Positions 757 to 29,400 of a stretch of 32,000 nt of DNA are shown piece after piece. The stretch is taken from assembly GCF_024435075.2 (NCBI RefSeq), contig NZ_JAMZEG020000002.1, positions 1,063,484 to 1,095,483 on the forward strand. Direction: 5' to 3'. Origin of the DNA: Marinomonas maritima. Lineage in GTDB: Bacteria; Pseudomonadota; Gammaproteobacteria; Pseudomonadales; Marinomonadaceae. The notes beneath the pieces were generated by a model. That model saw only the letters and a program-made list of their open reading frames with translations. It was not told the origin of the DNA and searched no databases. The position numbers were made by a program, and so were the translations under genes. The stretch's first letter is position 1; each line of letters opens with the position of its first letter.

Positions 757-831
757 CCCCTTATCATTGCTGTAGAAAGGGAGTAGTATGCATAACTCGT
801 TCCAATTCATTCAAATAAAAAGAGTTGCTCT

Positions 832-2307: not shown

Positions 2308-2324
2308 ACGGAAACCATTTCATC

Positions 2325-2774: not shown

Positions 2775-2784
2775 GAAGTAAAGC

Positions 2785-3054: not shown

Positions 3055-3061
3055 CCCGACA

Positions 3062-4420: not shown

Positions 4421-4426
4421 GTTCCC

Positions 4427-5444: not shown

Positions 5445-8400
5445 TTATTTGTCTGTCATTAACCGCATAATGTGTTTTGCCCCTTCCCCCTGTAAAATAG
5501 AATAGTGATCTGCAGTAATGCCGTGATACTGGATTTGACCAAGATATGGCTGCCAACTGGCTTTAACTCTTTCATCATCTATATGCTGGGTTGCTATACA
5601 AAGTAACGTGTTAGCGGCAACCTTCCCTTGGGGCTGAAACGCACTAATCGCTGCCGCATTTTTTCGACATGCCGTTATGACCCGCTCAATGTACCATTGC
5701 GCCTGACTTCTCTCCTCCTGCTGAGATTGTCGTTTTGATAGTGGATAGAGGGTGTTAGCCACCTCTTCAGGCGAACTTTTAGGGTTAAGCTTTCCCTTCA
5801 AACGTGGGTATTGTTGAATGATTTCATCAATAAACACTTTATTATCCAAAACTGGCCCTGAGTTCTGAACGCCGCTCAGTGTAGGCGGATCAATCATGAC
5901 TAAAGGCACTGATTGCCCCAGTTTTTCCAGCATGCGCGTCATTTGCCACGCGATAAATGCGCCAAAAGACCAACCAATAATACGCACAGGTTGATAGGAT
6001 TGAATGAGATCGACATAGTGCTCCGCCATCGCTTCAACTGTCATCATCTGCGCTTGTGGTGTATTCGGTGACAGCAAGGGGTCTCTAATACCATAAATGG
6101 CTCTGCCATCAGGCATCACATCAATCCATTCCCTATAACCCATAAGATCTCCGCCAATGGGATGGATCACAATATCACAGCCTAGTGAACCATCTCCTTC
6201 TTTCAGGCATGTGATAATCCCCTCCTCCAAATGGCTTATCACATTCGCCTCACTTGATGTACTAAGTACCTCTTCGATACGGCGAATGGTCACATTTTGG
6301 GTGAGATCCGCGAGTCTCACTTTATTCGGAAATAGGACATTAATACCATCGAATAAATCCAACAGTGTTAGCGAATCCCCCCCCAAGTCGTAAAAACATT
6401 CGTCTTCATCAACCTCGTCAAATCCCAAAATATCGGTAAAAAGAGAGCTAAGATAGACAGAAGTCGACATGTCTTTTGAGTGGTTCTTCAGACTATCGGC
6501 AACGTTAGAATTGCCTGCATGCAGAGTCGAGAAAAAGCGCTTTGCATTTTGATGCGCCAGAGGTGATATCAAATACTGAGCATCACCACCGTTCACAAGA
6601 GTATCTAATAATGCAACACCTTGAGCAGGTGAAATCGAAAAGTCGATCTCCTTAACGTGTTCGGCCATTCCTGTACCTCGCCAGGTTGGCCAATTAATAC
6701 TGATAAATTGAGGACCATCTATACGCTGATTTTGCATCTTGGCGTATAAATCTAAAAAGTGATTGGCAGCACAATAATCTGTCTGTCCCGCAACCCCATG
6801 CACCGCCGACATTGAAGAACAATAAGCGATAAATTCGGGTTCCAATATCAATAGTTCCGAATCAATATTAATGGCTCCGAGAATCTTAGCGGCCATATTA
6901 GCCGTTGCCGCTCCAGGCTCCATCAATCGTATCATTCCTCCTCCCGCCGACCCTGCTGCGTGGATAATACCTGTTACCTTACCAAACTGACCCAATACTT
7001 GGTTGGCCACATGCACCATATCTTCGCGTTTTGACACATCGCAGCGTAATTGCTGTATTGATTTTCCGGGATGAAGAATGGTCTCTGTAGCCGTTCGTGA
7101 AAGTAAAATCACGCGGGCGTCTCTAGTTGCCTGCAAATGCTCAGCAATAATTTGACCTATCCCCCCCGTTCCACCCGTAATTAAGTAAACGCCATCACTA
7201 ATAAATTTTTTCGAAGGTGACAAATATTGAGGTAGCGTTTGATATTCTTTGCGCCAAACGTACCGACCTCTTACAGCAAAATGGTACGCGTCATCCGCCG
7301 GATTCTGCTCAAGTCCTTCAATAGCGTACAGTAAATGCTCAGAAGATAGCGCTGGCAGTATATCCAATACCCTATACTCAATGCGCTCAAGCTCTAATGG
7401 GATAGTTTGTGCCAACCCTAGTAACAAACCTATATTGGGATTAAGGGTTTCTTCACCCAATACATTGGCACTACCAGAAACGACGTTAATCAAGAATAAA
7501 GGTTGCCGTTGTGGTCGCTGTTCCCAAACCTGTAGCAGAGTAACAATGGATAACAAAACCTCGCCAGATCCCATATGCATTGGATTTCCCTCTGGATCTT
7601 GGTCACCAAATGTCATATTCACTATCGTCAGAGGCTGGCTAAATAAAGACAGAACTGGCAACCGCTCAATAGCCGATGAAATACCATCGATGTATTGAAC
7701 CTGATGCCCATTAGCTCGCAAACCACTTGTTACACTTTTACCCCGTTCGTGAATATCATCTATCACTAAGTACTGTTTTTGGTTAACGGAATGCCTCTGA
7801 ACGCTATAAGCCCTAACCCACTGCTCCTGCATCAACCACTGTGATTCCGGAAGCGGATCAAAAGACGCTTGCTCTGGTAACACGTCAACACTACCGAGCT
7901 CACTCTGATCACAGTGCCATTTACTAAGGTACGTTTGGCAGTTAAAGGAAAAACTGGCTGCATCCCAAGCAGGTGCCTCACTAGCGGGTCTATAATCTTC
8001 TGGCATTGAACTCAATATGGCATGTGCATTGGTTCCACCCATACCGAAACTGCTCACGCCGGCGAATCTATTCGCCCCTCTCCACGGCCTGCTGGTACTA
8101 TTGAGGTAAAACCTTGACGCACTGAAATCTATATTGGTATTGGGAGTATCAGCCCATAAGGTAGGAGGAAGAACTGAGTGATACAAAGAAAGCGCCGTGC
8201 GGATAAACCCTGTTACGCCTGCCGCCGACCCTAAGTGCCCCATCTGACTTTTGACCGATCCCAACGCGCAAGTTCCTGAAGTTTGTTGCTGGTTGCTATT
8301 TTCCGCAAATGCATCGCTTAGCGCTTTCATTTCGATAGGGTCACCCAACTCTGTGCCAGTACCGTGTGCCTCTACGTATGAAATCTGCTCACTGGTCACG

Positions 8401-11400
8401 CCCGCATTACGCTGCGCTTGCAGCAATACATTTATTTGCCCTTGCACTGAAGGGGCGTAATAGCTCACTTTATCATTGCCATCATTATTAATGGCACTCC
8501 CTTTGATGACGGCATAAATGCGATCGCCATCCGCTTTCGCCCTAGTGAGTAGCTTTAACACGACGATACCCACACCATTGGCAGGTACCGTTCCACTTGC
8601 ACCTTGGCTAAACGGTTTACAATGACCGTCACGAGAAAGGATCATTCCTTGACGATAATGATAGCCTTCAAGCAGCGCCATATCTGCATTGGTTCCCCCT
8701 GCAAGACACACCTCACTGTCACCACTTCGTAGTTGTTGACAAGCTTGGTGAATCGCAACGAGTGAACTCGAACACGCTGATTGTACTGTGATGGCCGGGC
8801 CTTTTAAATTTAAGTGATACGCTAGTCGAGTCGCTAGGTGGTCCTTCTCATTAAGTAGGGAAAGCTGGTAACGATCCGGTGAATCACCTTCGGTGGAGCG
8901 TTCAATAATGCGCTGCTGATAACTGTTGTCACTGGCACACATCACCACGCCTATCTTGTGGTTAGACGAGTCTGGTGAAATACCGGCATTTTCAAGTGCA
9001 TGCACCGCACTCATTAATCCGTGCCGATGTTGAGGGTCCATTAATTTAGCTTCTTGATCAGACAAGCCAAAATAACCGGGGTCAAAATCAGCCAACCCAC
9101 TCATACTCGATATAACGCCCATCCAGTTATCATCTTGATGAGCTGAGGAGTCAAACGTTTCAATGCATTCCTTACCCGACTTAATGGCCTGCCAAAACTC
9201 CGCCAAATTATCAGCACCAGGCAGGCGCACCGCCATACCAATCACCGCTACCTCATCTTGATAAGTCGATTGCATTGGCGCTTTATGATGCACCGGCTGG
9301 CTTTCTTCCAACTGTCGATTCGGGTAAAGATTTTTTTGTAGGTGCTGGGCAAGAGTTGAAATAGATGGGTAATTAAAAAGATCCACCAAAGCAAGCACTT
9401 GGCCGTCGGGCATAAGGCGATTGTCTTTGACGAGCTGACCGTGCACTTTCATCAATAATAGGGAGTTTGCGCCAGCTTCAAAAAAACTTTTTTCCAAGTC
9501 AATCGAATAACCGAGTACGGAGGTAAACGCGGTATTAATGATGGTAGAAATCATGTCAACATTGAATATATCAACGGCTAAGTTATCTCTTGTTTTACGG
9601 ATCGCCTTCGATGGTGTCGAAAAATCGGGAGACGGAAATGCTGCTCGATCAATTTTACCATTGTTTGTTATTGGGAAGGCTTCGACACAAATGCATAAAG
9701 CCGGCACCATGTAAGCAGGTAATGCCGCCTTGGCCATTTCAGACAGTTCTAAGGGCAGCTGTTCATTCCCTTGTTTAGATTTAACATAAGCAATTAACAG
9801 TTGTTCGCCATGCGATGCGGTATGTGTTGTAACAATGCATTGTTCCACATTTTTATGCTGGCAAAGACAATTTTCGATTTCACCTAATTCGATCCGAAGC
9901 CCATTAATCTTAACTTGAAAATCTTTGCGGCCGATAAGCTCAACCACACCCTCTGGCAACCACTTAGCTAAGTCACCACTTTGGTACATTCGCTCACCAT
10001 TAATTGCAAATGGATCGACCGAGTATCTTTCATTGGTTAACGTAAGGTTATTGAGATAACCTCTGGTCACATTTTCCCCCGCGATGTACAGTTCACCAAC
10101 GATACCAATAGGCACCATGTTTTTGTGTTCGTCCAAAATGTAAAGTCGGTTATTGTCGAGGGGCTTACCGATATGGATTCGATCAGTATCTAATTTAATT
10201 TCAGCACCAGAGCAATAAACGGTGGCTTCTGAAGGTCCGTATAAATTAAAAAGCCTCGCATCATTGTCACCACCAAGCAGTAAATCTCGTAATTGATTCG
10301 TTAAATGGTCGCCTCCGGTGATCATTCTTAAACGGTCAGTGGGTTGCCAACCAAAATCCATTAGCATCCGCCAAGTCGCTGGCGTAGCTTGCATGATAGA
10401 AATGTCTAAATGTTTTTGGCACGCAGCAAGTTTGGCAGGAGTATGTACCTCGTCCCAATCTAAAATGGCAACTTTCGCCCCGCAAATAAGAGGGAGATAA
10501 ATTTCCGTGACATGAATATCAAAACTCAAAGAGGTAATTGATGGAATGGTATCTTGTGCCGAAAAACCCAACATATCCTTTAATGAAAACAAAAGGTTAC
10601 TGATATTTCTGTGTTCGATCATTACCCCTTTGGGTTGACCTGTGGTCCCGGACGTGAAGATAACAAAGGCGAGATTCTTTGGACCGAAAGACTGTGGTCT
10701 AATTGGATCCTGAATCGGTTGTGAACCTATCGACTCCCATAATAAATCATCTAATAATAAGACATCATTAACGCCGTCACCCAAGCCCTCCTTAATGGCT
10801 CCACAAGCTAACAGGATATCCGCTCCGCTCTCTTGGATTATATTTTTTAACCTGTTAACTGGGTTGCGCGAATCCAATGGTAAGTAAGCGGCTCCAACTT
10901 TTAATATAGCGAGAACCCCGAGCACTGTATTCAATGACCAAGCACCTACTAGACCAACAATATCACCTGGACCTGCGCCTAAATCGATTAGTTTATGGGC
11001 TAATTTATTAGCGCGAATATTAAGTTCTTGGTAAGTAAGGTGATGCCGACGATTATCACCTTCAAGCCATACACAAGCTATTTCGGCTGGCGTACGCTGA
11101 ACCTGAGCTTCAAAAAGGTCAGGGAAAGTAAGCTCCTTCGGGTAATCAACCTGAGTATCATTCCAACGCTTTATTTTCGCCTGTACGTCATCTGACACTA
11201 AAGCAATACGGCTAATATCTTTGTGTGGAGCTGCCAATACGTCATCGATAATGTCGTGAACGCTATCATTGGCTAATAAACCTGCATGAAGATGACTCTC
11301 TTCGGCCGAATGCGTTAACTGGCCTAGATGCGTTGAAAACTCATCCGTAAACGAAAGCAAATAGGATTGAAATTTGGATAAAATCCAATCCGCCACTTCG

Positions 11401-14400
11401 CTGTTGAGCAAAGACGTATTGTATTCCAAACAAAGGCCAGCCGAGCCGTTGTTCTCGGTAATAAACAAAGTCATTGGAAATTTGGCCTCACCGTTAAATC
11501 CGGTTTCAGCCTGAATGTTTGTCAATGGAAACTGAAGGTGACTTAGATCTGTGTTTTCGAGCACCATCATACAGTCAAACAATGGATTCATTGACGTTCG
11601 TCGCGGTAACATTGAAACAATATCTTCAAAATCAATATCTTGATTCTTCTGTGTTTCGACTACATGTCGGTGAACGGCCTGGATATAGTGATCGACCGTC
11701 ATCATGGGATTGATATCCGTATGAAAAACACTGGTGTTGACGAACATTCCTATTAGCTGTTCATAATCACCTGCCCCTCTATTTGCGATGGGCGAACCGA
11801 CAGAAATAACATCACGCTTAAAATATTGGCTTAATGCCAAACTATAGGCAGCAAGGGTATAACTGAAGAGGGTAACACTTTCATGCTTAACCGTTTCTTT
11901 TATGGTTTGCCATTGCGCAGAGTCAATGTGTGATGTTGCAATCGCACCTAATTGCGCCGACGCGCCGGTTTGCGCAAATAACGGTGCATTATCCGCTACA
12001 TTATCAATTCTATGTTGCCAGTACTTATGCTGAACAAGAAGCTCATTTGACTGTCTGTATTCACGTGAAAAGGCGCAAAAATCATCATAAGTATTACGCA
12101 ATTCAGGCAGGACTAATGGCTCACCCGTCACTTGCGCCAAATACAATTGGCTTAACTCTTCAAGCAACACATTCAGACTCCAACCATCAATAATAAGGTG
12201 ATGAAAGGACATGGCGAGGATTTGTGTATCTTCTCCCTGAATACTAAATAGGCGAAGATTAGCTAATACCCCCTTTTCAATATCAAATACTTGGCAGGAA
12301 AACCTATTTAACGCTACCAAGAGATCTGTTCTCTTTATCTGTTGCTGGTTTATCTTAACTAGCCCTGCGTTCATCTCACGAGTAACGGCGAATATCTCTC
12401 CATTTTCCAATTCAAAACAACTTCTGAGGGTAGCGTGCCGCTCAACCAGATGACGCCATGCTTCTTGAAGAGCACCATATTCCAGCGGTTTGTCTAAGTA
12501 AAAAAAATACGGTGCGCTATACGCGCTAGACAAAGGATTCAAATAGTACAAAAAAGCCAACCTTTGCTGCTCTGCCGACGCTAAATATTTTGCAGGCGTA
12601 ACTTTTGCTAACTCAGTGAGCTGATGGCTAATCTTTGGTTTCTTTTCAAGTATCGCAAATAACTCCAGCAAAGAAATAGGCTGCAAGATTTCACCGACAG
12701 TAACACCGATTGAAAGTCGATTTTTCAGAGCAGAAGCGAGTCTCATGGCTCTTAATGAATCGCCACCAGATTCGATAAAGGTTAGATCTAAAGCCGGCAG
12801 TGAGGAAATCCCCAATATCGTTGCGCATTGATTAGCAATGGCTAATCCTCTATCAGGCGCGCATTGCAGGATTAATCTTTCTTTTTCTACCAAGCTCATG
12901 GTCGCGGATAACAGCTCTTCAGACTGCATCACGCTCAATGCTTTTCTGTCTAGTTTACCGTTTGCGTTTAAGGGGATATGAGTAACAGAAAAAAAGCGGT
13001 GTGGCGTCATATAATCAGGTAATTGTGAACGCACATGGCCACGTATTTCGGACTGGGTTAACACAACATCAGAAACCAAATAGGCATGTAAATCCGCACT
13101 GTTATTTTCTTGGACAACCGCCAATGTTACCGCTTGAGTCACCTTAGGGTGAGAAAGTAATTGATTGTCTATTTCGGAAGTTTCGATCCGGTGACCACGA
13201 ATTTTTACTTGTTGGTCGGCGCGACCTAAATACTCGATCTGCTTATTCCCATTAATAAGCGCTAAATCCCCTGTGCGATACCAGCGTTTTGATGGATCTA
13301 ACCAAGACAAGTGAACAAATTTCTCACTGGTAAGCTTAGCATCCTTGTTATAGCCTTGAGCAAGCCCCTCTCCGGAAATATATATTTCACCTTGCTCCTC
13401 CATTTCCGCCAATCTATCCTGACCAACAACAACGATAACTTGAGTACGCTTAATACTTTGACCAATGGGTACTCTGCCAACTTTTATATAATGATCGACC
13501 AACGCACTGTCTAGTGGGTAACACGTACTAAATGTAGTGCACTCTGTTGGACCATAACCGTTATACAGCTGAGAAGTTAACTGACCACCAATACGTTGGC
13601 ATGCTTGATAATATACTTTAGCGGATAGTGGCGTGAACGCCTCCCCCCCTACTACTACATGTTTGATCTTGGTGACTTGCTGTACTTTTACTTCCACCAA
13701 AAGGTTAAATAGTGACGCGGTGATGAAAGCCACGTCCAAATCGCTGTTTTCAATTTTTTCGGCAAGCCGATCCGTATCGGTCAGTTCTGCCTGACTAAAC
13801 ACCACCAACGTGGCGCCATTTAACAGTGATCCCCAAACCTCAAAGGTCAACGCATCAAAAGTAGGATTGGCGAAGTTGGCCATCCGATCCCCTGCCGAAA
13901 GGGGCACATAAGTTGGCTGGCAAGCTACATTTAAAACCCCGCGCTGTTCAACTAAAACACCTTTGGGTTCCCCGGTAGACCCCGAGGTAAAAAAGATACA
14001 AGCAAGTGGATTGGTTTGTTTAAGAAGGCGCACATCAGCCCCCAGCTCGACAGACTCAATTAAGCTTTCTGCCTGAAAAGCACGGATATTTTCCTGATGA
14101 TAATCGTCAACGTTATTCGCTCCCGTAACGATACACTTAGCATCCGATAACGACAGAACGCGTCGACGCCGGATAAGGGGCGCGGTGGGATCAAGAGGCA
14201 CATAACAGGCGCCACACTTAAGAATCGCCACCAAGGTAGCCGTCAACAATAGTGATCGAGGCAGACTAACCGCTACCTGACCACCACCGATAACCCCATG
14301 ATTAATAAGGTTAAACGCGATGTTATCCGACAGTTTATCCAACGATTGATAGCTGGTTAGTTGCTCACCCTCCTCAACGGCGATGTACTCTCCATATTGC

Positions 14401-14483
14401 TGTACGATATGGCGAAATTGCTCGACAATAGAGACTTCAGCCCCTTCTTCTAACAGTTTGTCAAAATTTCTGATGTCTTCCAT
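5445..14483 (-). CDS. Hybrid NRPS-PKS megasynthase (NRPS/PKS-3), 3012 aa: A-T-C-A-T-KS-KR-ACP-TE
   Basis: ATG at 14483 and TAA at 5445-5447. All core motifs were read by hand; see the domain entries below. Confidence 0.97.
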   Translation of the reverse strand: MEDIRNFDKLLEEGAEVSIVEQFRHIVQQYGEYIAVEEGEQLTSYQSLDKLSDNIAFNLINHGVIGGGQVAVSLPRSLLLTATLVAILKCGACYVPLDPTAPLIRRRRVLSLSDAKCIVTGANNVDDYHQENIRAFQAESLIESVELGADVRLLKQTNPLACIFFTSGSTGEPKGVLVEQRGVLNVACQPTYVPLSAGDRMANFANPTFDALTFEVWGSLLNGATLVVFSQAELTDTDRLAEKIENSDLDVAFITASLFNLLVEVKVQQVTKIKHVVVGGEAFTPLSAKVYYQACQRIGGQLTSQLYNGYGPTECTTFSTCYPLDSALVDHYIKVGRVPIGQSIKRTQVIVVVGQDRLAEMEEQGEIYISGEGLAQGYNKDAKLTSEKFVHLSWLDPSKRWYRTGDLALINGNKQIEYLGRADQQVKIRGHRIETSEIDNQLLSHPKVTQAVTLAVVQENNSADLHAYLVSDVVLTQSEIRGHVRSQLPDYMTPHRFFSVTHIPLNANGKLDRKALSVMQSEELLSATMSLVEKERLILQCAPDRGLAIANQCATILGISSLPALDLTFIESGGDSLRAMRLASALKNRLSIGVTVGEILQPISLLELFAILEKKPKISHQLTELAKVTPAKYLASAEQQRLAFLYYLNPLSSAYSAPYFFYLDKPLEYGALQEAWRHLVERHATLRSCFELENGEIFAVTREMNAGLVKINQQQIKRTDLLVALNRFSCQVFDIEKGVLANLRLFSIQGEDTQILAMSFHHLIIDGWSLNVLLEELSQLYLAQVTGEPLVLPELRNTYDDFCAFSREYRQSNELLVQHKYWQHRIDNVADNAPLFAQTGASAQLGAIATSHIDSAQWQTIKETVKHESVTLFSYTLAAYSLALSQYFKRDVISVGSPIANRGAGDYEQLIGMFVNTSVFHTDINPMMTVDHYIQAVHRHVVETQKNQDIDFEDIVSMLPRRTSMNPLFDCMMVLENTDLSHLQFPLTNIQAETGFNGEAKFPMTLFITENNGSAGLCLEYNTSLLNSEVADWILSKFQSYLLSFTDEFSTHLGQLTHSAEESHLHAGLLANDSVHDIIDDVLAAPHKDISRIALVSDDVQAKIKRWNDTQVDYPKELTFPDLFEAQVQRTPAEIACVWLEGDNRRHHLTYQELNIRANKLAHKLIDLGAGPGDIVGLVGAWSLNTVLGVLAILKVGAAYLPLDSRNPVNRLKNIIQESGADILLACGAIKEGLGDGVNDVLLLDDLLWESIGSQPIQDPIRPQSFGPKNLAFVIFTSGTTGQPKGVMIEHRNISNLLFSLKDMLGFSAQDTIPSITSLSFDIHVTEIYLPLICGAKVAILDWDEVHTPAKLAACQKHLDISIMQATPATWRMLMDFGWQPTDRLRMITGGDHLTNQLRDLLLGGDNDARLFNLYGPSEATVYCSGAEIKLDTDRIHIGKPLDNNRLYILDEHKNMVPIGIVGELYIAGENVTRGYLNNLTLTNERYSVDPFAINGERMYQSGDLAKWLPEGVVELIGRKDFQVKINGLRIELGEIENCLCQHKNVEQCIVTTHTASHGEQLLIAYVKSKQGNEQLPLELSEMAKAALPAYMVPALCICVEAFPITNNGKIDRAAFPSPDFSTPSKAIRKTRDNLAVDIFNVDMISTIINTAFTSVLGYSIDLEKSFFEAGANSLLLMKVHGQLVKDNRLMPDGQVLALVDLFNYPSISTLAQHLQKNLYPNRQLEESQPVHHKAPMQSTYQDEVAVIGMAVRLPGADNLAEFWQAIKSGKECIETFDSSAHQDDNWMGVISSMSGLADFDPGYFGLSDQEAKLMDPQHRHGLMSAVHALENAGISPDSSNHKIGVVMCASDNSYQQRIIERSTEGDSPDRYQLSLLNEKDHLATRLAYHLNLKGPAITVQSACSSSLVAIHQACQQLRSGDSEVCLAGGTNADMALLEGYHYRQGMILSRDGHCKPFSQGASGTVPANGVGIVVLKLLTRAKADGDRIYAVIKGSAINNDGNDKVSYYAPSVQGQINVLLQAQRNAGVTSEQISYVEAHGTGTELGDPIEMKALSDAFAENSNQQQTSGTCALGSVKSQMGHLGSAAGVTGFIRTALSLYHSVLPPTLWADTPNTNIDFSASRFYLNSTSRPWRGANRFAGVSSFGMGGTNAHAILSSMPEDYRPASEAPAWDAASFSFNCQTYLSKWHCDQSELGSVDVLPEQASFDPLPESQWLMQEQWVRAYSVQRHSVNQKQYLVIDDIHERGKSVTSGLRANGHQVQYIDGISSAIERLPVLSLFSQPLTIVNMTFGDQDPEGNPMHMGSGEVLLSIVTLLQVWEQRPQRQPLFLINVVSGSANVLGEETLNPNIGLLLGLAQTIPLELERIEYRVLDILPALSSEHLLYAIEGLEQNPADDAYHFAVRGRYVWRKEYQTLPQYLSPSKKFISDGVYLITGGTGGIGQIIAEHLQATRDARVILLSRTATETILHPGKSIQQLRCDVSKREDMVHVANQVLGQFGKVTGIIHAAGSAGGGMIRLMEPGAATANMAAKILGAINIDSELLILEPEFIAYCSSMSAVHGVAGQTDYCAANHFLDLYAKMQNQRIDGPQFISINWPTWRGTGMAEHVKEIDFSISPAQGVALLDTLVNGGDAQYLISPLAHQNAKRFFSTLHAGNSNVADSLKNHSKDMSTSVYLSSLFTDILGFDEVDEDECFYDLGGDSLTLLDLFDGINVLFPNKVRLADLTQNVTIRRIEEVLSTSSEANVISHLEEGIITCLKEGDGSLGCDIVIHPIGGDLMGYREWIDVMPDGRAIYGIRDPLLSPNTPQAQMMTVEAMAEHYVDLIQSYQPVRIIGWSFGAFIAWQMTRMLEKLGQSVPLVMIDPPTLSGVQNSGPVLDNKVFIDEIIQQYPRLKGKLNPKSSPEEVANTLYPLSKRQSQQEERSQAQWYIERVITACRKNAAAISAFQPQGKVAANTLLCIATQHIDDERVKASWQPYLGQIQYHGITADHYSILQGEGAKHIMRLMTDK
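5448..6191 (-). other. NRPS/PKS-3 C-terminal thioesterase domain
   Basis: IVIHPIGGDLMGY. GxSxG is present as GWSFG, with the Ser2839 codon at 5967-5969 verified. Asp in VMIDPP and His in TADHYSIL. Confidence 0.9.
6249..6476 (-). other. NRPS/PKS-3 acyl carrier protein domain
   Basis: FYDLGGDSLTLLDLF. The Ser2704 codon at 6372-6374 was verified. Confidence 0.88.
6654..7193 (-). other. NRPS/PKS-3 ketoreductase catalytic subdomain
   Basis: NADPH motif TGGTGGIG. Ser in CSSMSA. YCAAN is present, with the Tyr2570 codon at 6774-6776 verified. Confidence 0.85.
7194..8003 (-). other. KS-to-KR interdomain region (probable KR structural subdomain); contains no AT
   Basis: About 270 aa. It has no GHSxG, no AT-type (Y/H)ASH motif and no AT arginine motif. 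Confidence 0.6.
8004..9257 (-). other. NRPS/PKS-3 ketosynthase domain
   Basis: EVAVIGMAVRLPGA. The active-site motif is QSACSSSLVA, with the Cys1904 codon at 8772-8774 verified. EAHGTGT (His2040) and KSQMGHLGSAAG (His2083) complete an intact Cys-His-His triad. Confidence 0.92.
9339..9581 (-). other. NRPS/PKS-3 thiolation domain 2 (feeds the KS)
   Basis: FFEAGANSLLLMKVH. The Ser1674 codon at 9462-9464 was verified. Confidence 0.88.
9639..11141 (-). other. NRPS/PKS-3 adenylation domain, module 2
   Basis: Cores LTYQELN, LKVGAAYLPLD, FTSGTTGQPKGV, SFDIH, NLYGPSEAT, YQSGDLAKW, GRKDFQVKINGLRIELGEIE, NGKIDRAAF. The hand-read pocket DITQIGLVYK is Gly-like (tentative). It is a paralogue of the NRPS-2 module-3 A domain. 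Confidence 0.88.
11304..12596 (-). other. NRPS/PKS-3 condensation domain (LCL-like)
   Basis: HHLIIDGWS at aa 761-769. The C1-like motif is SAEQQRLAFLYYL. Confidence 0.88.
12654..12881 (-). other. NRPS/PKS-3 thiolation domain 1
   Basis: FIESGGDSLRAMRLA. The Ser576 codon at 12756-12758 was verified. Confidence 0.88.
12939..14441 (-). other. NRPS/PKS-3 adenylation domain, module 1 (second initiation module)
   Basis: Cores LTSYQSLD, LKCGACYVPLD, FTSGSTGEPKGV, FDAL, NGYGPTECT, YRTGDLALI, GRADQQVKIRGHRIETSEID, NGKLDRKAL. The hand-read pocket DAFFVGGTFK is close to the Val code DAFWIGGTFK. This assignment is tentative. Confidence 0.88.
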
Positions 14484-14537: not shown

Positions 14538-17500
14538 TTAATTACACAGTTCCCGCTGTATAAACTGAGCAACCGATAAGATACTGGGCGCCTCCAACAT
14601 GGTTGAGTGATCGGCGTCTACGTACTCAACCAGAAACTCACCACACGCCTTATTCTCCCAATAACCCTTCATTACCTTCAGGTAGTCTGCGGGTTTATCT
14701 TGGGTCGCTATAATCACCGCTGTTTTGGCCTTGGTATTAGCCAGCGTCATCGTTTTCATCGTATTGAGATGATGATTGTATATTCGGAAATACCGATCAA
14801 TTTGTTGGTCGTCGATGCCAGGATACATTCCGTTGTAGGTCACCAATTTTTCTCTAAACACATCACTACTGACGGGTTTAATTTTGTCCCGGATACTCTG
14901 ATCATCGCTTCCTTCTGTGTCCAACAACAGCGCCATCGAATCGATACCACGCGCTTGCAGTATTCTTGCCATCTCATAGCTGACATACCCTCCATAGGAA
15001 CAACCCACAATGGTATGTGATGTGGTCAAAAGGTGTTCTATAAGCGAGATATAGTGGTTGGCCATTGCCTGCACGTCTTCTAGGAACGGCTGGTCAGAAT
15101 CGACGCCTTGAGCCTGAATACCATACACGCCAAAGTGACTAGGCAGCTCTTTCGCCAAGGCAAGATAGGCAAAAGCAGTCCCACCACCGGGATGAATGCA
15201 AATGACATTATGAACGCCATCACCTCGTCGAAACTGGATAAGATCTTGGCTGGGATTCACTGTCGATTTAGTCGTCGTTGCATCGGAGCGTATCAGCCAA
15301 GCTAATGCTTCGATGCTGGGGTTTTTAAGCAACTCTGATACCGGTATTTGTACTGAAAGTTGTTTCTCTATTTCATGGACTACTTTAATCGCCGAAATCG
15401 ACGAGCCGCCAATTTCAAAGAAATTATCTCGAATGCCAATCTTCTTTTTCAACAAAATATCATGCCAAATTTGATACACTAGCATCTCAATATTATCTCG
15501 CGGGCTAGCGGTATTTACCTGTTTTGGCACTTGATTTTTCAATGCGGCTTCGTGCAATGCAGCATGATCAAGCTGGCCGCTAGCCGTCAGTGGTAACACC
15601 TCGAGCATGACATACTCATCGGGAGTCACAACACTTGATAGATCACGAGATAACATACCTTTTAATGACCCCCTTAGTTCATCGATTTCTGCCCGCGATA
15701 ATTTTCCGCCTTGCTCAGGCACTTTTCCTACGATAAACACCACTAGCTGCTTTTCCCCTTCCCGCGCTACCATTTCCACGGCAACTTGCTCTACTTTGGG
15801 ATGTGAAAGAACCCGTTTTCGGATAGCAGATAAGTCAATACTAACTCCTCCAATAGAGACTGAATCACCCATTCTACCAACCAGCACAAGATCGCCAGTT
15901 TTCATATATCTAACCAAATCGCCGGTACGATACAGTTTTTCGTCCGAGTTCTGATTAAAAGGATTCTCTATGAATGCTTCCGCAGATAAATCAGGTCGAT
16001 TAAGGTATCCCATTGCGAGCCCGTCACCTCCCAAATAAAGTTCGCCAACTTGACCGAAAGGAACCAATTTATTGTCAGGTGAAAGTACATAAGCACTGGT
16101 ATTAGTGATAGGTCTACCTATTGGGTAATATGACGCTAATTCAGTGATTTCAAAGCTGGTGCTGAATACTGTATTTTCCGTCGGCCCGTAAACGTACAAT
16201 AAGTGGTTTGGTTTTCCTTGAGTCAATAGGCTGTCTAGCTTAGCAGAATCGATTTCTTCTCCTCTAAAGAGCAGGGTATCCAGAGCAGCGAAAACATCGG
16301 GATTAAGCGCTAACAATTGGTTAACCTGCGCCGTCGGCATAAACATGACATCGATGGCGTGCTGTTCAATACTATGGGATAAAGCAGCGCTGTTTTTCAT
16401 TACACTGTCTGACAAAATGGCCAGCTTCGCACCGTTAAGCAGCGCCCCCCATATTTCAAACGTAGATGCATCAAGTGAAAGATCACTGATCTGCGCGATC
16501 ACTTGGTCTTGACTAAGCTTTACATAATGACTGTTTTTGACTAAGCCTAGGATTGCTCGATGCGCAACCATAACCCCCTTAGGTTTATACGTGGCGTCAG
16601 AGGTAAACATGACGCATGCAGGTTGCATTTTAATATCACAAGACTGATCGGCTATATTCTCGCTCGACAATGTGCAAGGCACTTGCTTTATGTCCACTAA
16701 CTGTACTGGATAGCACTCACCTATATCAGCATCATCACTCAGTAAATGTGTCATCTGACAGGTTTCCATCATATAACTCAACCGGCTTAGAGGAGATTTA
16801 GAATCCATGGGGACATAAGTGGCACCTAACTTAAGAATGGCCAGCATACTCACTATCATGCTCGAAGAACGTTCGCTAACTATGCCGACATACTGATTCG
16901 CTTTTACCCCCTGCAACACCAGATAACGCGCCAATTGATTGGCCTTGATATTGACGTCGTCATACGTTAATTCTGCCTGTTCATCAATTAAGGCCACACT
17001 GTCTGGGGTATGTTTAACATAATGTTCAAACCATTGATGAATTCCCATCCCCTCTACTTGGTCGTAGGTGCCATTCAATTCATTTATTTGAAAGTTCTGC
17101 TCTGCATTAGAGAGCAAGGGAACCTCTTGGACACAAGAATGTGGGGTAGCTACCATTCCTAACAAGATGTTCTTAATATGCTTTTGCAGCTCACTCAGTT
17201 GCCAGTCAGCTAAAAGACCAGGTTGAGATAACAGCTTAATTTCCAACACATCACTTTTAGCGGCGATAACCGTTAGCGCATAGTTAGTTTGTTCATTAGA
17301 CGCAAGCTCATTCATCTGCAATCTGTTTTTATTCGAAGCGGTTCCCTGTAACTCATCCACAGGGTAGTTTTCAAACACCACGATGGAATCAAATAGATTT
17401 CGACCTTTGACCTTAGATAATTGCTGAATATCTTGTAGTGGTAAATAACCATACTCTTCGAGGTCAATATGCCGCTTATGAATAGACCTAAGCCAATTTG

Positions 17501-20500
17501 TTACGCTGACCCCTTTTGGAACCTTCATCACAACGGGTAACGTATTAATAAACAAACCCACCATGGTTTCAATTCCCGGTAGCGCCGCAGGGCGACCGGA
17601 AACAGTGACGCCAAAAAGGACGGTTTCATCACCGCTATAGTGGGACAAGACTAACCCCCATGCCGCTTGAACTAAAACATTCAAGGTACATTGGCTATTT
17701 TTTGCCAGCGCTTCCAATGCCTGTGTTTCTTGCGAGCTGAACGTCAGAGTCGTCTTAGTCGAGAGCTCATCTCGACATTCGCTCTCAGGAAGAAAACCAC
17801 TTGGCAACGTCGTCGGTGACTCAATATTTGCCAGTGATTCAGTCCAAAATAACTGCGCCGCTTGAGTATTTTGACACGCTAGCCATTCAATATACTGGCC
17901 ATAAGGGATGACTGCCGGCAAATCACTCTGCTTACCCGTCAGAAGTGATTGGTAAAAATGGCTCAAATCACTCCAGATAATAGGAAGACACCAACCGTCC
18001 ATCAACGCATGGTGATTGGACCAAATCAGCTTAAACTGGCCGGAATCCATTTCAATGCAGGTAAATCGCATTAATGTTGGCAGCGTCGCATCAAAACCAC
18101 AACTTTTGTCTTGCGTCTGTAGCGCCTCTATATTTGCGCTTTGTTGGCTTTCGCTTTGCCCTTTCAGGTTCACATCTCGCCAGATTATTTCAGTCGTATC
18201 CGTTACTACTTGACGCCTTACCCCATCATTCGCCAGCAAGAAAGCAGTACGTAAAATATCATAGCGTGCTATCACCCTTTGCCACGCCTGTTTCAATGCA
18301 CTGGGATCAATCTGCGCTAACGAAACGGTCAATTGCGTAACGTAAGCCTCTTTCGCTAGCTCGCTGTGGTACAACAAACCTTGCTGCATACCGGTAGCTG
18401 GGTAGACGTCAGTGATTCTCACGTTGTTAGCAGACAAGGACAAACTCCAGTTATCCAAGTCCTGTTGTTTCACTTTTGCTAAAGGCACGTCGGCTGGCGT
18501 CAACCTCACTGCATCTCGTGAGGAGCAGTGTTCAATGATTTGTTGCAATGCGCGAGTGATCGCGTCGATCATGTCTGAAACCGCTGCTGGTGAAAACGCC
18601 GCCAAATCAAAATTGAAATCAAAGCTTAGTTGGCCATTTTTCACTCGACCATTAAGGGCAATGGCATAGCTTTGCATATGATCGAAGCTACCATCCTCTC
18701 CTGTCGCTTGCGATGAAAATGAAAACGCTGAATCTGCCTCCATCATTTGATCTAATTGACCAAAGTAGTTAAATAGGATTTCTGGTGAAGCCTCTCGATG
18801 ATCTAGCTGTTCAGGAGAAAACCAATTTAACACGCCATAACCCATGCCCTTGTTTGGCACGGCACGTATTTTTTCCTTTACCGCACAGATCAGATCGCCT
18901 ATTTCACCCCGCTCTGCATTCAGAACAAGTGGGTAATTGGAAGTGAACCAGCCAAGGGTTTGGCTTACTTCTAAATGACAATCAAGTCCGTCACGTCCAT
19001 GCGTTTCCAATGTCAATGAAAGGGGGGCATAGTCATCGTTGTATTGCCCTCTCGTTTCCCGCCATTCGTCTAAGCCAAGTAATAATGCCGATAGCAGAAG
19101 CTCTTGGACTTCAGTACCGTATGCCTGTTGAGTGTTTTTTAGCAGAGTCTGGGTTTGCTCTAGGGTTAACGTCAGCAATTTTTCGCCGCGCTGCCCTTTG
19201 TTATGAGCAGCACCATCTTTTGGCATTGATCGCACCGCCGCCAAATCCGAGAGCGATTTTTGCCAGTACGGCCGTTCACTTTCAACAGCCTTCATAACAG
19301 GATCACTGGTAAGCCATTGGCCCCATTGCTGATAGGATGCTGTTTTTTCCTCCAAAACAAGAGGTAGCCCTTGCTTAAATTGCCTGTAAATCAGCTGTAG
19401 ATCATCAAGTATAATCCGCCAAGACACACCATCTACAACCAAGTGATGAATTACTAGAAATAGCTTATTACCGTCCTCCGACGTTAACAACACCGCCTTT
19501 AACATGGGGCCTTGCTCAATATTGAGGCTCAGCTGAGCCCGCTGGCATTGTGCTTCTAAATCAGCCGAATCTTTGCTGTCATAACGAGTTTGCATGACAG
19601 TATTTAACTGATTTTCGGTACTAATAGGCTCAAAACTTGCCTGCCAGTGAATAGATTCTGCGTCTTTAGTAAACTGAAGTCGAAGTGCATCATGTCTTCG
19701 ATAAAGGGCTGTCACTGTTTGCTCGAGCAATGTGAACGAAAAATCAGCGGGAACATTTAACAATATTGATTGGTTAAAGAGATGAAGGTTCTTTTCTTTA
19801 CCATGGTGAAAAAACTCATGTTGAATCGGTAACAAAGGTAGCTTGCCAGTCACACTCACCTGAGGGGCTTGCTCTTGCTTTTTCATCGTAATATGTGGTG
19901 TTAACGAAAAAATAGTAGGATTATCAAACAGTTGTTTTACGGTGAAGTGAAGACCCAACTTTGCTGCGCGAGACACCGCCTGCATGGACATAATAGAATC
20001 GCCACCTAAGGCAAAGAAATTATCATGCACACTCACGGGGTCACATTTAAGCAATTTGGACCAGATCCCAGCTATCTCAATTTCGATACTTGTTGAGGGT
20101 GCCACGTGATCTGTAATTTGGCTAACGGCTCTTGGTTTGGGCAGCGCTTTTTTATCAATTTTCCCATTATTAGTCAGCGGCCATGCATCCAGTCTCGCCC
20201 ATAATACTGGTGTCATGTAATCGGGCAGTTGATGACTAAGCTCACCGATCAAACGTTGAAATAATTCTTCGTCTGGCAATGCAGGGGTATCTTGTTTGGC
20301 TATTACATAAGCAACCAACTGGCGCTTACCTGAAGCGGTCCCCTGTACCATCACCAACGCCCCTTCCACCTCTTTGCAGACATTCAATTGCTGCTCAATT
20401 TCACCTAGCTCTACGCGGAAGCCACGGATTTTAATTTGCTCATCACTACGACCAATATAAACAAGATCGCCGTCGCGTTGTCGGCGCACTAAATCACCAC

Positions 20501-23500
20501 TGTGATAGAGGCGCTCACCTGGTGTGAAGGGGCTTGGAATAAACCTTTGCGCGGTTAACTCGGGCTGGTTCAAATAACCACGTGCAATCCCCGCACCTGC
20601 GAGATAAAGATGACCGGCGACGCCAAATGGAACAAGATTCAATGCATCATCAAGCACATAGGTCTTAACCTTATCGATTCCCTGACCAATATTTCGCGGG
20701 TCATCCCCTTGTTGATACTGGTGAACCGTAGAGCACACACTATTTTCTGTGGGTCCGTATTCGTTAAACAGGCGAGTGTGAGGCACAAAGCGCTCAATCA
20801 CCTCACTTGATATGGCCTCTCCGGACAAAACAATGCGCGGTATCAAAGGGGCATTTTCTGGTAACACCAATTCAGCAAGTAACACTGGCGGTATATAGGC
20901 CACAGCGAATCGCTCCGGCTCTGCGAGATACTTCTGCAGCGTCTCTAATTGAAACCTTTTCTCTTCCGATACGATATGCAGTGGCCGACCACTGTAAAAT
21001 GAGCCCCAGATGCTGGCCACAGACGAATCGAATGAAAAATTTGTGAGATAAAGAAAGCTGGCATTTGCATAGACATCACTTGCCGATAAATCGAGATATT
21101 GGTATTGGCACTTGATATAGTTGACCACCCCAACTTGTTCAACCAACACGCCCTTAGGCCTCCCGGTCGATCCCGATGTATAAATAATATAAGCCAAATC
21201 CGACACACTTGGTTTTGACAACAGCGTCGGTTTTTCCTCTGAATAATCCTGCAAAGAACAGGCATCTACATCCAACACTAAACAGCCATTAAAGGCAGGG
21301 GGTTCGGCACTAAACAGATGTAACTGGGCCAATAATACCGGCGCTTTACTGTCCTCAAGTATATAAGTCAATCGGGACAATGGCGCCTTTGTGTCGATTG
21401 GAAGATAGGCACCACCCGCTTTTAAGATAGCCAGCATGGCAATGATCATTTGCGGCGAGCGCTCAATGAACACAGCAACAGGCACGTTAGCGCCTACCCC
21501 TAAGATGACCAAGTGATGACTGAGCTGATTGGCTTTTTTATCCAACTCTGCATAGGTCAGTCTCTCACCTTCATAGTCTAACGCCACATGATTAGGCTGA
21601 CGCTCCAATTGTCGATCAAACAAATCCACTAGTAAGGTTTGGTCGACATCCAGAATATCTCCTTTATTGGCGAACAAGACACTTGGCTGCTCTTTTTCTG
21701 GTATAAGCGCCAACGCCATGACATCAGCATTAGACTGGCTCAGCATTTGTTGTAATAAATAGTCAAAATGACGCGCCAATGCTTCGATTGTTTCTCGCAT
21801 AAACAAATCTAACGCAAAATTCCAGCTCAGTCGTAATTGTCCGTTAACCACCCGCACACCAAGTGTAAGATCAAATCGAGCCTCTACGCTCGATGGCATT
21901 TGCGCAGTAAGGCGAGCATCTCCTAAGCACAAAGAGTCACCAGAAGAGGATTGCTCCAAGACCATCATGATTTGAAAAATGGGATGGTGGTTGAACCGCC
22001 GAGGAATATTATTATCCTGTATTACTTTCTCAAATGGTAACGATTGGTGAGCAAAGTCATTTAACAAATCGGCATGGTTTTGCGACACCAATTGAGCGAA
22101 ATCAATCTCCTTTGGTAAGCGAGTCCGCAGTGCTATATTGTTCACAAAAAAACCAATAAGCCCATCAAGATCTGGCCGTTCACGGTTAGCCACTGGCGTG
22201 CCTATGACGATGTCTTTGCTACCAGAGTAGCGAGCCAGCAAGACAGTAAAGGCACTGTACAAAACAGTAAAGGGGGTTGTACCTTGCGTTTTGGCATACG
22301 CCAATACTTGATTGGATAAGTGAGGGCTTAGATCAGAATAATGCGTCTCTCCACGGTAGCTAGCGTTTGCTGGGCGAGAAAAATCAGTGGGTAAACTATG
22401 AGTCTCTGGAACATCCACCAACCTTGCCCGCCAATACTCTAAAGAGGCAAGGTGTGCCGGTGATTCTTTGCTAAATCGTTCACGCTGCCACACCGCATAA
22501 TCCGCGTATTGAAAAGCTAAAGGTTGAAGAGCTAAAGGCACTTTTTCGATAACCTTGTGACCTACTAATGCCGAGTAGCATGATTGCAACTCCTCAAACA
22601 AAATGTCCACTGACCATCCATCGATGGCAATATGATGAATGGTAAGCAACAGCACATGCTGGTTTTCACTTAGCGTTACCAGTCCGGCGCGAAAAACCGG
22701 ACCATTAGCCAAGTCAAAGGGCTGGTCAAAAAGCATTTTCTCAAAATCAGCCAGTGCAGATTTGGGGTCGGATAACGACTGTGCATCAAGATGCTGCAAA
22801 ATCCCCGTGACAGGCGGCATCACATGTTGCACTGGCTCCTGCTCTGTCATCTTATACACTGTACGTAATACATCATGACGATTGACAATAAAATCAAGAC
22901 TTTGTGATAAGGCACTCACCTCGATCTGGCCGCTTATATGGTACATAAGGGGGATGCCATAATATCGCCCATGGGTCTCGATATTATCCAATGTCCACAA
23001 TCTCTGCTGCGAGTAAGACAAGGCTACACCATTCGTCGTATCCACTTTTTTTATCGCGAAGGTCTGTGTCGTTTTTTTATCGGCACTCAGCTCATCGCAT
23101 AAACGGGCTAATCGGCGGATCGAAGGCGCCTCAAATAAGACTTTTAGCGTTAGCGTGATTGCCAACGCCCTCCCCAATCGACTGATCATCTTGATGGCTA
23201 ACAGAGAATGACCACCCAGAGTAAAGAAGTTTTGATCTATATCTGGATCATCAATAGAGAGCAGTTCAGACCATGTAGCAGCGATTACTTTTTCTGTTGC
23301 TGTTGTCGCCGAGCAATGCTCCTCGCTAATGTGTGAATACGTTGGTATCGGTAACGCGCTGCGATCAACCTTGCGATTATAGGTAAGGGGGAATTCAGCC
23401 ATAACCACAAAAAATGTGGGTGTCATATAATAGGGTAGCGCTTCTGACAAAAGAGCTCTAAGCGCCTCCACCAGCGGTTGTTCACTGTGCTGGCTTTTGA

Positions 23501-26426: not shown

Positions 26427-29400
26427 TATATTTCACCCTCTTCCATATTCAGCACTAGATCCGTGGGCACCTGATCGCGAGCACTGAGAATTGCATCAAT
26501 ATAACTGGCTAAATCTCGTATCGTTGCCTGCGTAAAAAAGTCGCTCATTTTCAGTTCGACCTGCAACTCAAGCCTAATTCGACCAATCATCTTCATCGCT
26601 AGTAGTGAGTGTCCGCCAATGGAAAAGAAGTTATCCGTTACGCCAACTTGATCTCTTGTTAAACTATCTTGCCAAATAGCAACTAAGGTTTTTTCAGTTT
26701 CCGTTGCCGCTATTTCTAAAGGCGTATCTCCCGTCAAAGGAGAAAGTAATTTAGTTTTGTCTATTTTCCCCTGAGCGGTCATCGGCATGTTTGCCAATAC
26801 CACAATAGCATTAGGTCTCATATAAACGGGAAGTGACTGCTTCAGTAACCCCCTTAACTTACGAGTTAGGACCCTCTCACTGCTTTGATCCGTTTGCCAT
26901 GCCAAAACCTCTTGCTCGGAAAGCGTGATGTAAGCATAAATGGCTTCTTCTCGTACTAAAGCTATCGCCTGAGAGACCTCAGCATTTTCTAGCAAGCGCG
27001 ACGAGATCTCTCCCAATGCAACTCGATACCCTCTTACTTTCACTTCATCGTTTAGCCTACCCAAAAACTCAAGTTGACCATCAGATCGCCAACGCACCAA
27101 ATCACCCGTTTTGTAATAACGATGATTTTGTTCCTCTGGCCCGGATAGATGAGCGGCTTCTACGAAACGTTCTTCTGTTAATTCTGGTTGATTCAGGTAG
27201 CCTTTGGCTACGCCAGCCCCTCCGATATATAGTTCACCCGGAACACCAACAGGCGCTAGTTGACCATCTATCACTACTCTTGCCGTTGCATTGGCGATAG
27301 GTCGGCCAATTGGAGGAGAAATCACATTTTTCGGATCCATTTTGTAAAAAGTAGCGTCTACGGTGGTTTCTGTTGGCCCATATAAATTAAATAAGTTGGC
27401 ATGAAAATCAGCAGGGAACTGAACTTGACCTAATTTATCGCCGCCGACCAGCAAGGTATCCAATGACTGAGGCCAATTAAAATTTCTGGCACATGCGGCT
27501 TCCAACAACCCAGTTGGGAGACACGTATGGGTAACGTTAAATCGCGCCATCACGATAGATAATGTATCGAGATCATCACGTTCGTTATCTGACAATAGCA
27601 CTACCTGGCCACCCACCATCAATAACGGCCAAACCTCTGCCATAAAGGCATCAAAGCCCACATAAGCCAAACTGGTACCCACTGAGTTTTCATTCAACTT
27701 AAATTCATCTACATGCCAAAGACAGTCATTTATTAACGCTGAGTAGCCTATTTCAACCCCTTTAGGAACACCGGTTGAACCCGATGTATAGATGATATAG
27801 CCACTCTGGTTTTGATTATCCGCAACGGGCGAAAACATCGGCAGGGCTTTCGTCACCCTATGTGCGTTAGTAATATCCACGACCGATTGCGGGCAATCAA
27901 TTAAGAAGGACAGTTCAATCATGTCAGACAACACCAATTTCGACCCGCTGTCAGACAGAACAAATACCGCTCTTTGCGCCGGAAGGTCTGGTGCGATAAC
28001 CACGGCGCAAGCACCCATTTTAAACACCGCCAGCATGGCGATAACCAAAGATGGAGTTCGATCAGCAACAATAGCGACTTTGTCACCTGATTGAATATTG
28101 TTATCGGCCAATTCAACCGCTAATTGGGTGGAAGCCCCTTCGAGTTGGCCATAAGTCAAATCAAGAGGACCGCTACTGACCGCAAGTTTGTCCGGCGTAG
28201 ATAGCGCGATCGCACTAATGGCTGAAACTAAGTCTTGGCCAGAAAATTGTTGCATTGTTTCTAAGGACAGCGGCTTTCCACGACCCCAATCATTCACCAT
28301 AAGATGGGCTTGGGAAGGCGGGATAATATCGAGTTTTTCTAAGGCCAGATCACTGCATTGCTCAAAGTCATCAATTACATTAAGAAATACATTTTTAAAA
28401 CTGTCGAGAAAGGAAGCGATCTCTTCTTGGGTATAAACATCGCTGCGATACTCCCATAAGAAGTGCACCTCACCGTTTTCGTTAAAGGTTTCTCCTCTTG
28501 GCACAACTAAGCAATCGATATCAAATTTAGACGTATCCGAAATAACGGTTTCATCCTTGTGCCATTGCATCCCAGGAATAGGATCGGTATAGATCGGTGT
28601 GTCGTGAAACCCCAGTAGCACGTTAAAAAACGGATTACTGTCACCATCACGCTCTGGGTTTAACGCTTCTACCACATGAATAAAAGGCAATTCTTCATTG
28701 GATTGCGCTTCGTCTACGGTTGCCTGAGTTTGCGTTAGAAAAGCACGTAGCGAACTGGAACTATCTATCTGTTGACGCAGCACCAGCGTATTCACAAACA
28801 TGCCTAACGTGGTGTGACTGTTACTCCAATTACGATTGGCAAACGCCGACCCAAAACTCAGGTCGGTCTGCCCCGAGTAACGCCATAGACAAAGATACAA
28901 AATGGAGGAGGTGAAACTAAAGCTGGTGACGCCCAATTGTTGGCACAAAGCTTCCATCGCTTGCCATTGGGCACGGGAAAAAATGATTTTCTGATGATCT
29001 CCCGCAAAGGCTAAGGAGCGTGACTTTTTACCGAACAGCGCGACGCCATTCGGGGAGCCTGCCAACTTATTTCGCCAAAATTCAAGCTGCTGCTCTGCAT
29101 AGGACGACTTTAGCCAGTCACGCTGAGCAAACATAAAATCGGAATATTGAGCAGGAGGATTTATCTCAATTTTATAGCTGTGATCCACCTGTGCATGGTA
29201 GATTTCAATTAACTCTCGGGTAAATTCATTGGCGCTCCAACCATCGTGAATGATGTGGTGCTCCTGATGCAACAAGACATGATGTGTATTTGAGAATGCC
29301 ACTAATAGAAATTCAGCCAACGGTAATTGACTTAAATTGTCGAGGCGGGCAAGTCGGGTCTTAAAGGTTTGTTCGAGAAAATTTTCTTGCTGCGCGAGCG

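Follow-up and report, generated by a model that had tools for sequence, protein, structure and literature searches.

A full-length adenylation domain with decayed catalytic motifs is maintained, probably as a scaffold, in the terminal module of a Marinomonas maritima nonribosomal peptide synthetase

In a 32,000-nucleotide stretch of the Marinomonas maritima genome (contig NZ_JAMZEG020000002.1, positions 1,063,484 to 1,095,483; the whole stretch is hereafter called the window, and all coordinates refer to it), we analyzed the last adenylation (A) domain of a nonribosomal peptide synthetase (NRPS), which we call A*. The window contains three megasynthase genes, all co-directional on the minus strand. 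NRPS-1 (26426-31654, -) has the organization A-T-C-A-T according to its open reading frame (ORF) and Pfam domains, with T and C denoting the thiolation (carrier) and condensation domains. NRPS-2 (14538-26426, -) encodes a protein of 3962 aa in which the ORF, its translation, and Pfam place a TubC-type docking domain followed by C-A-T-C-A-T-E-C-A*-T-TE, with E and TE denoting the epimerization and thioesterase domains. NRPS-3 (5445-14483, -) is a hybrid with a polyketide synthase (PKS) and reads A-T-C-A-T-KS-KR-T-TE (KS, ketosynthase; KR, ketoreductase); it carries an initiation module and a TE of its own, and Pfam detects no acyltransferase (AT) domain in it.

The end of NRPS-1 and the start of NRPS-2 are joined by an ATGA overlap. 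The C-terminal tail of NRPS-1 is short and acidic (...DLVLNMEEGEI; 26426-26520, -) and probably pairs with the N-terminus of NRPS-2, a TubC_N-type docking domain (PF18563, 42.7 bits; 26270-26426, -). The overlap and the matching docking parts indicate that the two proteins form a five-module line ending in the TE of NRPS-2. A gap of 55 bp separates the NRPS-2 stop codon from the downstream start of NRPS-3, and no docking element was seen in the sequence at its N-terminus or at the C-terminus of NRPS-2.

A* occupies 15537-17081 (-), corresponding to aa 3116-3630 of NRPS-2, in module 5 of this line. It is full-length, comprising both Acore and Asub, and catalytically degenerate. The same module contains the DCL-type condensation domain C3 (17100-18446, -; HHALMDG at 17994-18014), the carrier domain T3 (15252-15536, -), with its phosphopantetheine-site Ser within GGSS at 15399-15401, and the terminal TE (14541-15251, -; PF00975; GCSYGG at 14988-15008). 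An E domain (18447-19856, -; HHLVVDG) follows the preceding carrier domain, T2, and is predicted to supply the D-configured donor to C3.

A first-pass annotation, made from the letters and ORFs only, had described A* as decayed in four catalytic core motifs and in the substrate pocket, and all these departures were reproduced. Direct translation gave FTSDATYKPKGV for A3 (16572-16607, -), in which the P-loop reads TSDATYKPKG with the changes G192D, S193A, and G195Y. A8 is GRMGDSVSIGGVSIDLSAI (15822-15878, -), including GRMGDSVSIGG; here, the hinge Asp is replaced by Gly and the A8 Lys by Ser, and further invariant Arg/Glu residues are gone in comparison with the canonical GRxDxQVKIRG. A9, canonically LPxYMxP, reads LSSVVTP (15621-15641, -) and is mostly lost. 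A10 reads SGQLD (15567-15581, -), with Gln (CAG, 15573-15575) in place of the catalytic Lys517, an assignment on which alignments with GrsA-PheA and LgrA agree; in the LgrA alignment, made with HMMER, the deviant residues of A* face TSGSTG..KG and NGKVD. At pocket position 301, where the usual residue is Gly, Ala, or Ser, A* has Arg (AGA, 16263-16265, -). This residue is part of the specificity code DAFFLRVVFQ read from the GrsA-PheA alignment, which returns the reference code DAWTIAAICK for GrsA itself, and 8 of the 10 code residues of A* are still recognizable.

The remainder of the domain is better preserved. A* keeps A1, A2, and A4-A7 (A5 being YGPTE and A7 YRTGD), and the equivalent of Asp235, the ligand of the substrate α-amino group, is retained at 16470-16472 (-). 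The claim that A1, A2, A5-A7, and the T-domain Ser are intact held except in A6, in which ARGY has become AMGY with the loss of its Arg. This Arg, the A8 Lys, and the LPxP A-T linker motif were losses that had gone unnoticed. Instead of LPxP, the segment following A10 (15537-15566, -) reads HAALHEAAL, and it reads RATLHGAAL in an orthologue described below; the loss in both is another indication that the usual geometry of the A-to-T hand-over has not been preserved. Among the features of a competent A domain, A* lacks both A3 glycines, the A10 Lys, and the A8 hinge Asp and Lys. In the other six A domains of the window (the sister domains), already described as canonical, TSG(S/T)TGxPKG, GRxDxQVK, and the A10 Lys are indeed kept. 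Their variants are mild and limited to NRKVD and YAPSE in the first A domain of NRPS-2 (N2_A1) and QGKID in the second of NRPS-1 (N1_A2).

The residues missing from A* are close to invariant elsewhere. Its 120 nearest database homologues, which share 36-43% identity with it, have the canonical residue in all 120 cases at each of the A3 positions G192, S193, and G195, in 119 at G301, and in 118 at K517 of A10. The A8 hinge Asp is present in 119/120 and the A8 Lys in 120/120, and the A8 Gln, Lys, Arg, and Glu positions are each kept in 119-120/120. With a hidden Markov model (HMM) built for the purpose, we also collected 819 complete A domains; they come from 150 large synthetases that an exhaustive search had returned. 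The A10 Lys was found in 818 of these, G192 in 817, and G195 in all 819. The sole A10 Lys exception, in a domain into which a methyltransferase is inserted, reflects an alignment effect, not a true loss. Arg or Lys at position 301 occurred in none of the 819 reference domains. A* is an extreme outlier at many catalytic positions simultaneously. As a measure of decay, the raw count of departures from conserved columns was rejected: it gave 32/110 for A* and 17-29 for the other local A domains, and discriminates only weakly because the reference set is clade-specific. What counts is which residues have been lost.

We found one orthologous locus (L001), on contig CBDFNC010000004.1 of a Psychromonadaceae metagenome-assembled genome (MAG), with the same NRPS-2/NRPS-3 arrangement. 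Its A* is 80% identical to that of M. maritima and carries K517Q with the same CAG codon, Lys (AAA) at position 301, the code DAFFLKVTFQ, and the Asp235 equivalent. Both P-loop glycines are non-Gly in the two genomes, and an acidic residue occupies the G192 position in each. The degenerate motifs have nevertheless diverged: A3 of L001 is FTPESTDQPKG (5/11 positions different), A8 is GRIGDRVTIRGVSIELPAI (including GRIGDRVTIRG; 6/19 different), and A9 is LPSVMAP (3/7 different), whereas A3, A8, and A9 of the first and second A domains of NRPS-2 show 0-1 differences between the orthologues. The combination of shared losses and diverged motifs suggests that the inactivation is older than the split of the two lineages and that these motifs have been unconstrained since.

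The domain as a whole is clearly under purifying selection. In the pairwise comparison with L001, for which synonymous divergence is ~0.6, the ratio of nonsynonymous to synonymous substitution rates (dN/dS, or omega) of A* was 0.178 (95% confidence interval [CI], 0.13-0.24), and that of the first and second A domains of NRPS-2 combined was 0.109 (95% CI, 0.087-0.137). The relaxation of A* relative to these two domains is modest and significant (bootstrap P=0.009). No further orthologues were recovered: the best hits in the protein database reached 41-43% identity, a representative library returned generic megasynthases only, a metagenome scan gave nothing related, an exact look-up of NRPS-2 had no match on record, and matches in a plasmid collection stayed below 40% identity.

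Among the closest homologues of A*, the codes DAFWLGGTFK (49) and DAFFLGVTFK (36) occur, which are Val- and Ile-type codes. The L001 code differs from DAFFLGVTFK at positions 301 and 517 only. From these similarities, A* appears to have descended from an A domain activating an aliphatic (Val/Ile) substrate.

Only two other domains in the reference set have degenerate P-loops, P0389 aa 4906-5445 (GTESSGEPNG) and P0347 aa 2-440 (TSETTGKTNG). Like L001, both carry Glu in place of G192, but their A10 Lys is kept; they may represent further natural inactive A domains.

Despite the decay of its motifs, the fold of A* seems intact: measures taken over the whole domain are normal, and the decay is limited to particular functional residues. 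Both Pfam families of the two-subdomain ANL superfamily fold were detected, AMP-binding (PF00501) at 223.8 bits (gathering cut-off, 29.9) and AMP-binding_C (PF13193) at 26.0 bits (cut-off, 24.5). The alignment to these HMMs that the first-pass annotation had proposed as a check confirmed the fold membership, but the scores carry no signal of decay, and we rejected them as a decay index: A* falls within the range of its sister domains (196.6-265.6 bits for AMP-binding and 23.5-45.0 bits for AMP-binding_C). An AlphaFold2 model of A* reached a mean predicted local distance difference test (pLDDT) score of 89, the same as that of a control model of the second A domain of NRPS-2 (N2_A2), and a predicted template modeling (pTM) score of 0.85. 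A* matched the solved structures of PheA, EntF, and LgrA; the model had a Foldseek E value of 1e-53 to PheA and a template modeling (TM) score of 0.83 to EntF. The model fits EntF 5t3d (TM, 0.83; root-mean-square deviation [rmsd], 3.7 Å) better than adenylation-state PheA (rmsd, 11 Å), which could be read as A* being locked in the thiolation state. We rejected this reading because the canonical N2_A2 control behaves alike (EntF TM, 0.86). The most constrained stretch of A* (omega, 0.06) is the Asub loop between A8 and A9 (aa 3556-3595; 15642-15761, -), which spans 86 residues against a median of 76. Its length is not a unique feature, as 3% of 830 A domains have an equally long loop. It may constitute a new interaction surface.

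The domains surrounding A* show no comparable decay. In C3, 50 of 52 positions with a conservation of at least 95% among the 120 closest C3 homologues are unchanged, while A* keeps 78/110; the dN/dS of C3 is 0.17, and HHALMDG is the same in the orthologue. T3 is 84% identical between the two genomes (dN/dS, 0.20), with an unchanged GGSS. TE is 89% identical and has the lowest dN/dS in the NRPS-2 protein (0.109); its GCSYGG is the same in the orthologue, and its downstream Asp and His motifs are conserved. A departure was observed in C3: the C5-motif Arg, present in 94% of the 120 homologues, is absent (FINTLPVVMKV; ~17526-17558, -; aa ~2957-2967), and C3 of L001 has the same Val at this position. 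This change may be connected with a modified acceptor site or with the contact surface between C3 and A*.

Taken together, A* is probably an adenylation-dead pseudoenzyme that was inherited in this state and has been selectively kept as the scaffold of C3-A*-T3-TE, with T3 most likely loaded by another A domain. This agrees with the first-pass suggestion of a retained scaffold that no longer adenylates, to which the shared K517Q, the motif drift, the dN/dS of 0.18, and the intact fold signal all point. A Val/Ile-type ancestor would have lost the P-loop glycines, the A8 hinge Asp and Lys, and the A10 Lys before the two lineages split, and Arg or Lys at position 301 would fill the substrate pocket. 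A* would then serve as the structural core of the terminal module, holding C3, T3, and TE in working geometry, with selection acting on its full length and fold. The scaffold role is suggested by the combination of lost ATP-binding and adenylation residues, inheritance of the loss, and maintenance of the fold. Since C3, the T3 Ser, and TE are constrained like working domains, T3 seems still to be used, and another A domain would most likely aminoacylate it. We give this part of the scenario roughly even chances if the scenario itself holds. The loading could proceed across modules, as in SidD, or in trans, as in CysK/CysH and KtzH/KtzN. The best candidate loader is the N-terminal A domain of the co-transcribed NRPS-3 (N3_A1; 12924-14483, -), which has intact and conserved catalytic motifs and a Val-like code (DAFFVGGTFK) of the same specificity class as the ancestral A* code. 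C3 would then join the D-configured tetrapeptidyl-T2 to the loaded residue, giving a pentapeptide for release by TE.

Several points weigh against this interpretation. We infer the inactivity of A* from its sequence, and the estimates of selection come from a single pairwise comparison with one orthologue. A* and N3_A1 share 31% identity, no more than A* shares with the other local A domains (31-37% for all six), and T3 is closest to the first T domain of NRPS-1 (N1_T1; 43%) and not notably similar to the NRPS-3 T domain. The proposal of N3_A1 as the loader is, consequently, an argument from specificity class only. No stand-alone A or A-T gene, SyrC/CmaE/CysB-like shuttle gene, or MbtH gene, and no dedicated trans-loading gene of any kind, was found within the 32-kb window, in which the upstream side of NRPS-1 ends at 32000. 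Finally, the T Ser and TE matter in glidonin synthesis without carrying the product, so that the conservation of T3 and TE is no strict proof that T3 is loaded.

This interpretation has precedents. In cystobactamid biosynthesis, CysK-A3 lacks only the A10 Lys and was shown experimentally not to load its T domain; T3 of CysK is served by CysH via the shuttle CysB (PMC7966384). In the albicidin line, an inactive A domain is complemented by an A-T module (PMC8949500). These modules resemble that of A* in having a full-length A domain within a C-A-T module, degenerate cores, a lost A10 Lys, and a kept T Ser, and they still contribute a residue to the product (PMC7966384, PMC8949500). Their clusters, however, encode a stand-alone A-(AMDH)-T and, for cystobactamid, the SyrC-like CysB, none of which has a counterpart in our window. 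The A* module also differs from them in being terminal with a TE, in its broader decay (A3, A8, A9, LPxP, and position 301), and in its substrate class, which is aliphatic here and Asn-derived there.

SidD offers a parallel for loading within one enzyme: the A domain of module 2 is inactive but kept, and A1 loads the orphan T2 (PMC10192304). SidD is, however, a fungal iterative depsipeptide siderophore synthetase, in which the loading is done by the A domain just before the inactive one, and both have the same substrate. In kutzneride biosynthesis, as cited in PMC10587159, KtzN, a separate A enzyme, loads in trans the T domain next to the non-functional A* of KtzH, and this A* is needed for the loading. 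The kutzneride A* is, however, truncated and accompanied by a stand-alone A gene in the cluster. The Ax domain of Dol15D-M2 in dolastatin 15 biosynthesis is similar to A* in its A1-A10 architecture and partly degenerate A3 and is presumed not to bind ATP (PMC13643306). That domain is complemented in cis by a keto-acid ligase (KAL) in the order C-Ax-KAL-KR-T, whereas A* contains no inserted domain.

A more elaborate variant of our interpretation, which we put forward only tentatively and consider doubtful, is that the pocket of A* is self-plugged. Arg/Lys301, paired with Asp235, which is retained, would imitate an amino acid bound in the pocket, and the Asub loop would present T3 to the Val-type A domain of NRPS-3. 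If true, one A domain would feed two lines without a shuttle, and the peptide and peptide-polyketide lines would be stoichiometrically coupled.

The main competing explanation is termination as in glidonin synthesis, where module 13 of GdnB is C13-A*-T13-TE, its A* and T are needed for folding and stability, and its C domain condenses free putrescine by means of an acidic acceptor pocket, S9963/D9965/E9984 (PMC10587159). C3 would accordingly condense the tetrapeptidyl-T2 thioester with a soluble amine, for instance a polyamine or the NRPS-3 product through its free N-terminus, with A*, T3, and TE acting as structural support and TE hydrolyzing stalled intermediates. The first-pass annotation had offered trans loading or skipping of module 5 as the only two outcomes; trans loading is retained here as an option, but the pair was incomplete in that it lacked this amine release. 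The terminal C-A*-T-TE layout with a non-functional A* in a scaffold role is common to both systems, and the mechanism was shown biochemically in GdnB (PMC10587159). Also consistent with it are the lack of a visible trans-loading gene in the window and the state of C3, which is intact with a few lineage-specific departures common to the orthologue, such as the loss of the C5-motif Arg. However, the A* of GdnB is truncated to an Asub-only remnant without a Stachelhaus code and is followed by a tandem TE, whereas A* here is full length with a readable code. Moreover, the TE of NRPS-2 is the most constrained domain, with all its catalytic motifs intact, and C3 is, by its conserved positions, otherwise an ordinary DCL domain, a type that uses a T-bound acceptor. 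We therefore consider this termination unlikely, while giving it more weight than the other alternatives.

Another arrangement is a single line, as in albicidin, in which the acceptor of C3 is the Val-loaded first T domain of NRPS-3 and the chain goes on through C-A-T-KS-KR-T-TE. A*-T3-TE would then be a relic or an alternative early-release branch. Without A*-T3-TE, the gene order would be colinear, with NRPS-2 ending in C and NRPS-3 beginning with A-T, and the Val-type code of N3_A1 fits the ancestral class of A*; a separate A-T module complementing an inactive A domain has its precedent in albicidin itself. We find this quite unlikely in view of the missing docking elements between NRPS-2 and NRPS-3 and the fact that T3 and TE are free of the decay seen in the catalytic motifs of A*. 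Two separate lines would also account more simply for the presence of two initiation modules and two TEs.

Module 5 might instead be skipped, adding nothing, with the tetrapeptide reaching TE from T2 or via an unloaded T3. Bypass of a terminal module whose A domain does not work is conceivable, and skipping is documented (reviewed in PMC8949500), but C3 is constrained like working C domains (HHALMDG, 50/52 positions, and omega of 0.17), and skipping would be expected to lead to decay of the whole module and not of the A* catalytic residues alone. Chain transfer from T2 to T3 without an acceptor corresponds to no known chemistry, which makes this explanation improbable.

Even less credence is due to residual activity, in which A* would adenylate weakly or with an unusual substrate, another residue replacing Lys517 and Arg/Lys301 selecting an acidic or atypical substrate. 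Asp235, A4, A5 (YGPTE), A6, and A7 (YRTGD) are kept and identical in both orthologues, and the charge at position 301 is conserved (R/K). Nevertheless, the P-loop glycines, the A8 Lys, the hinge Asp, and the A10 Lys are all lost, an acidic residue sits at G192, and the drift of the motifs between the orthologues is unlike a re-tuned active site; the loss of the A10 Lys alone inactivates CysK-A3 (PMC7966384). Recent pseudogenization or an assembly or sequencing artefact, for which nothing speaks beyond the odd motifs themselves, is refuted by the orthologue and has practically no probability: the ORF runs through all 3962 codons without interruption, omega lies far below 1, and the substitutions recur in an independent MAG at a synonymous divergence of ~0.6.

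The interpretation of A* as an inherited, inactive scaffold introduces no new principle, because the same hallmark loss is known from inactive A domains that were described and biochemically characterized earlier; a dead but kept A domain is a rare, already documented departure from the rule of one module for one building block. As A* breaks the colinearity rule, it affects structure predictions for the cluster: antiSMASH-style tools would predict from it a fifth Ile/Val-like residue that A* would be unable to activate. The orthologue pair offers a natural example in which selection keeps the fold, A4-A7, and Asub while the P-loop, A8, and A9 drift, and this may be of use in engineering A-less or scaffold-only modules. 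The locus represents an uncharacterized, non-linear NRPS/PKS system from a poorly explored marine Psychromonadaceae lineage.

Several further features of the window were noted. An antisense ORF of 115 aa (15607-15954, +) lies inside the A* coding region; it has no support as a gene and was judged spurious. No Rfam matches were found in the window. The other side of the cluster is occupied by the housekeeping genes lptB, rpoN, ptsN, npr, mgtE, and darP. The conserved lptB-rpoN-ptsN-npr block, followed by mgtE and darP (31-4963, +; locus L004), adjoins the cluster, and the RpoN is identical to one on Logan contig SRR36651763, which stops short of the NRPS genes.

In NRPS-3, aa 1743-2602 form the PKS module KS-KR-T-TE, with the KS active-site Cys and His motifs present and a KS-KR linker of ~260 aa without a Pfam assignment. 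Its lack of an AT implies a trans-AT or FabD-served module. N2_A1 (23337-24884, -) and the second A domain of NRPS-3 (N3_A2; 9624-11171, -) are paralogues with 55% identity. Both have an unusual A5 (NLYAPSEA and NLYGPSEA, respectively), and their codes are DIAQIGLVYK and DITQIGLVYK. The A10 motif of N2_A1 is NRKVD in both genomes, with the Arg adjoining the catalytic Lys.

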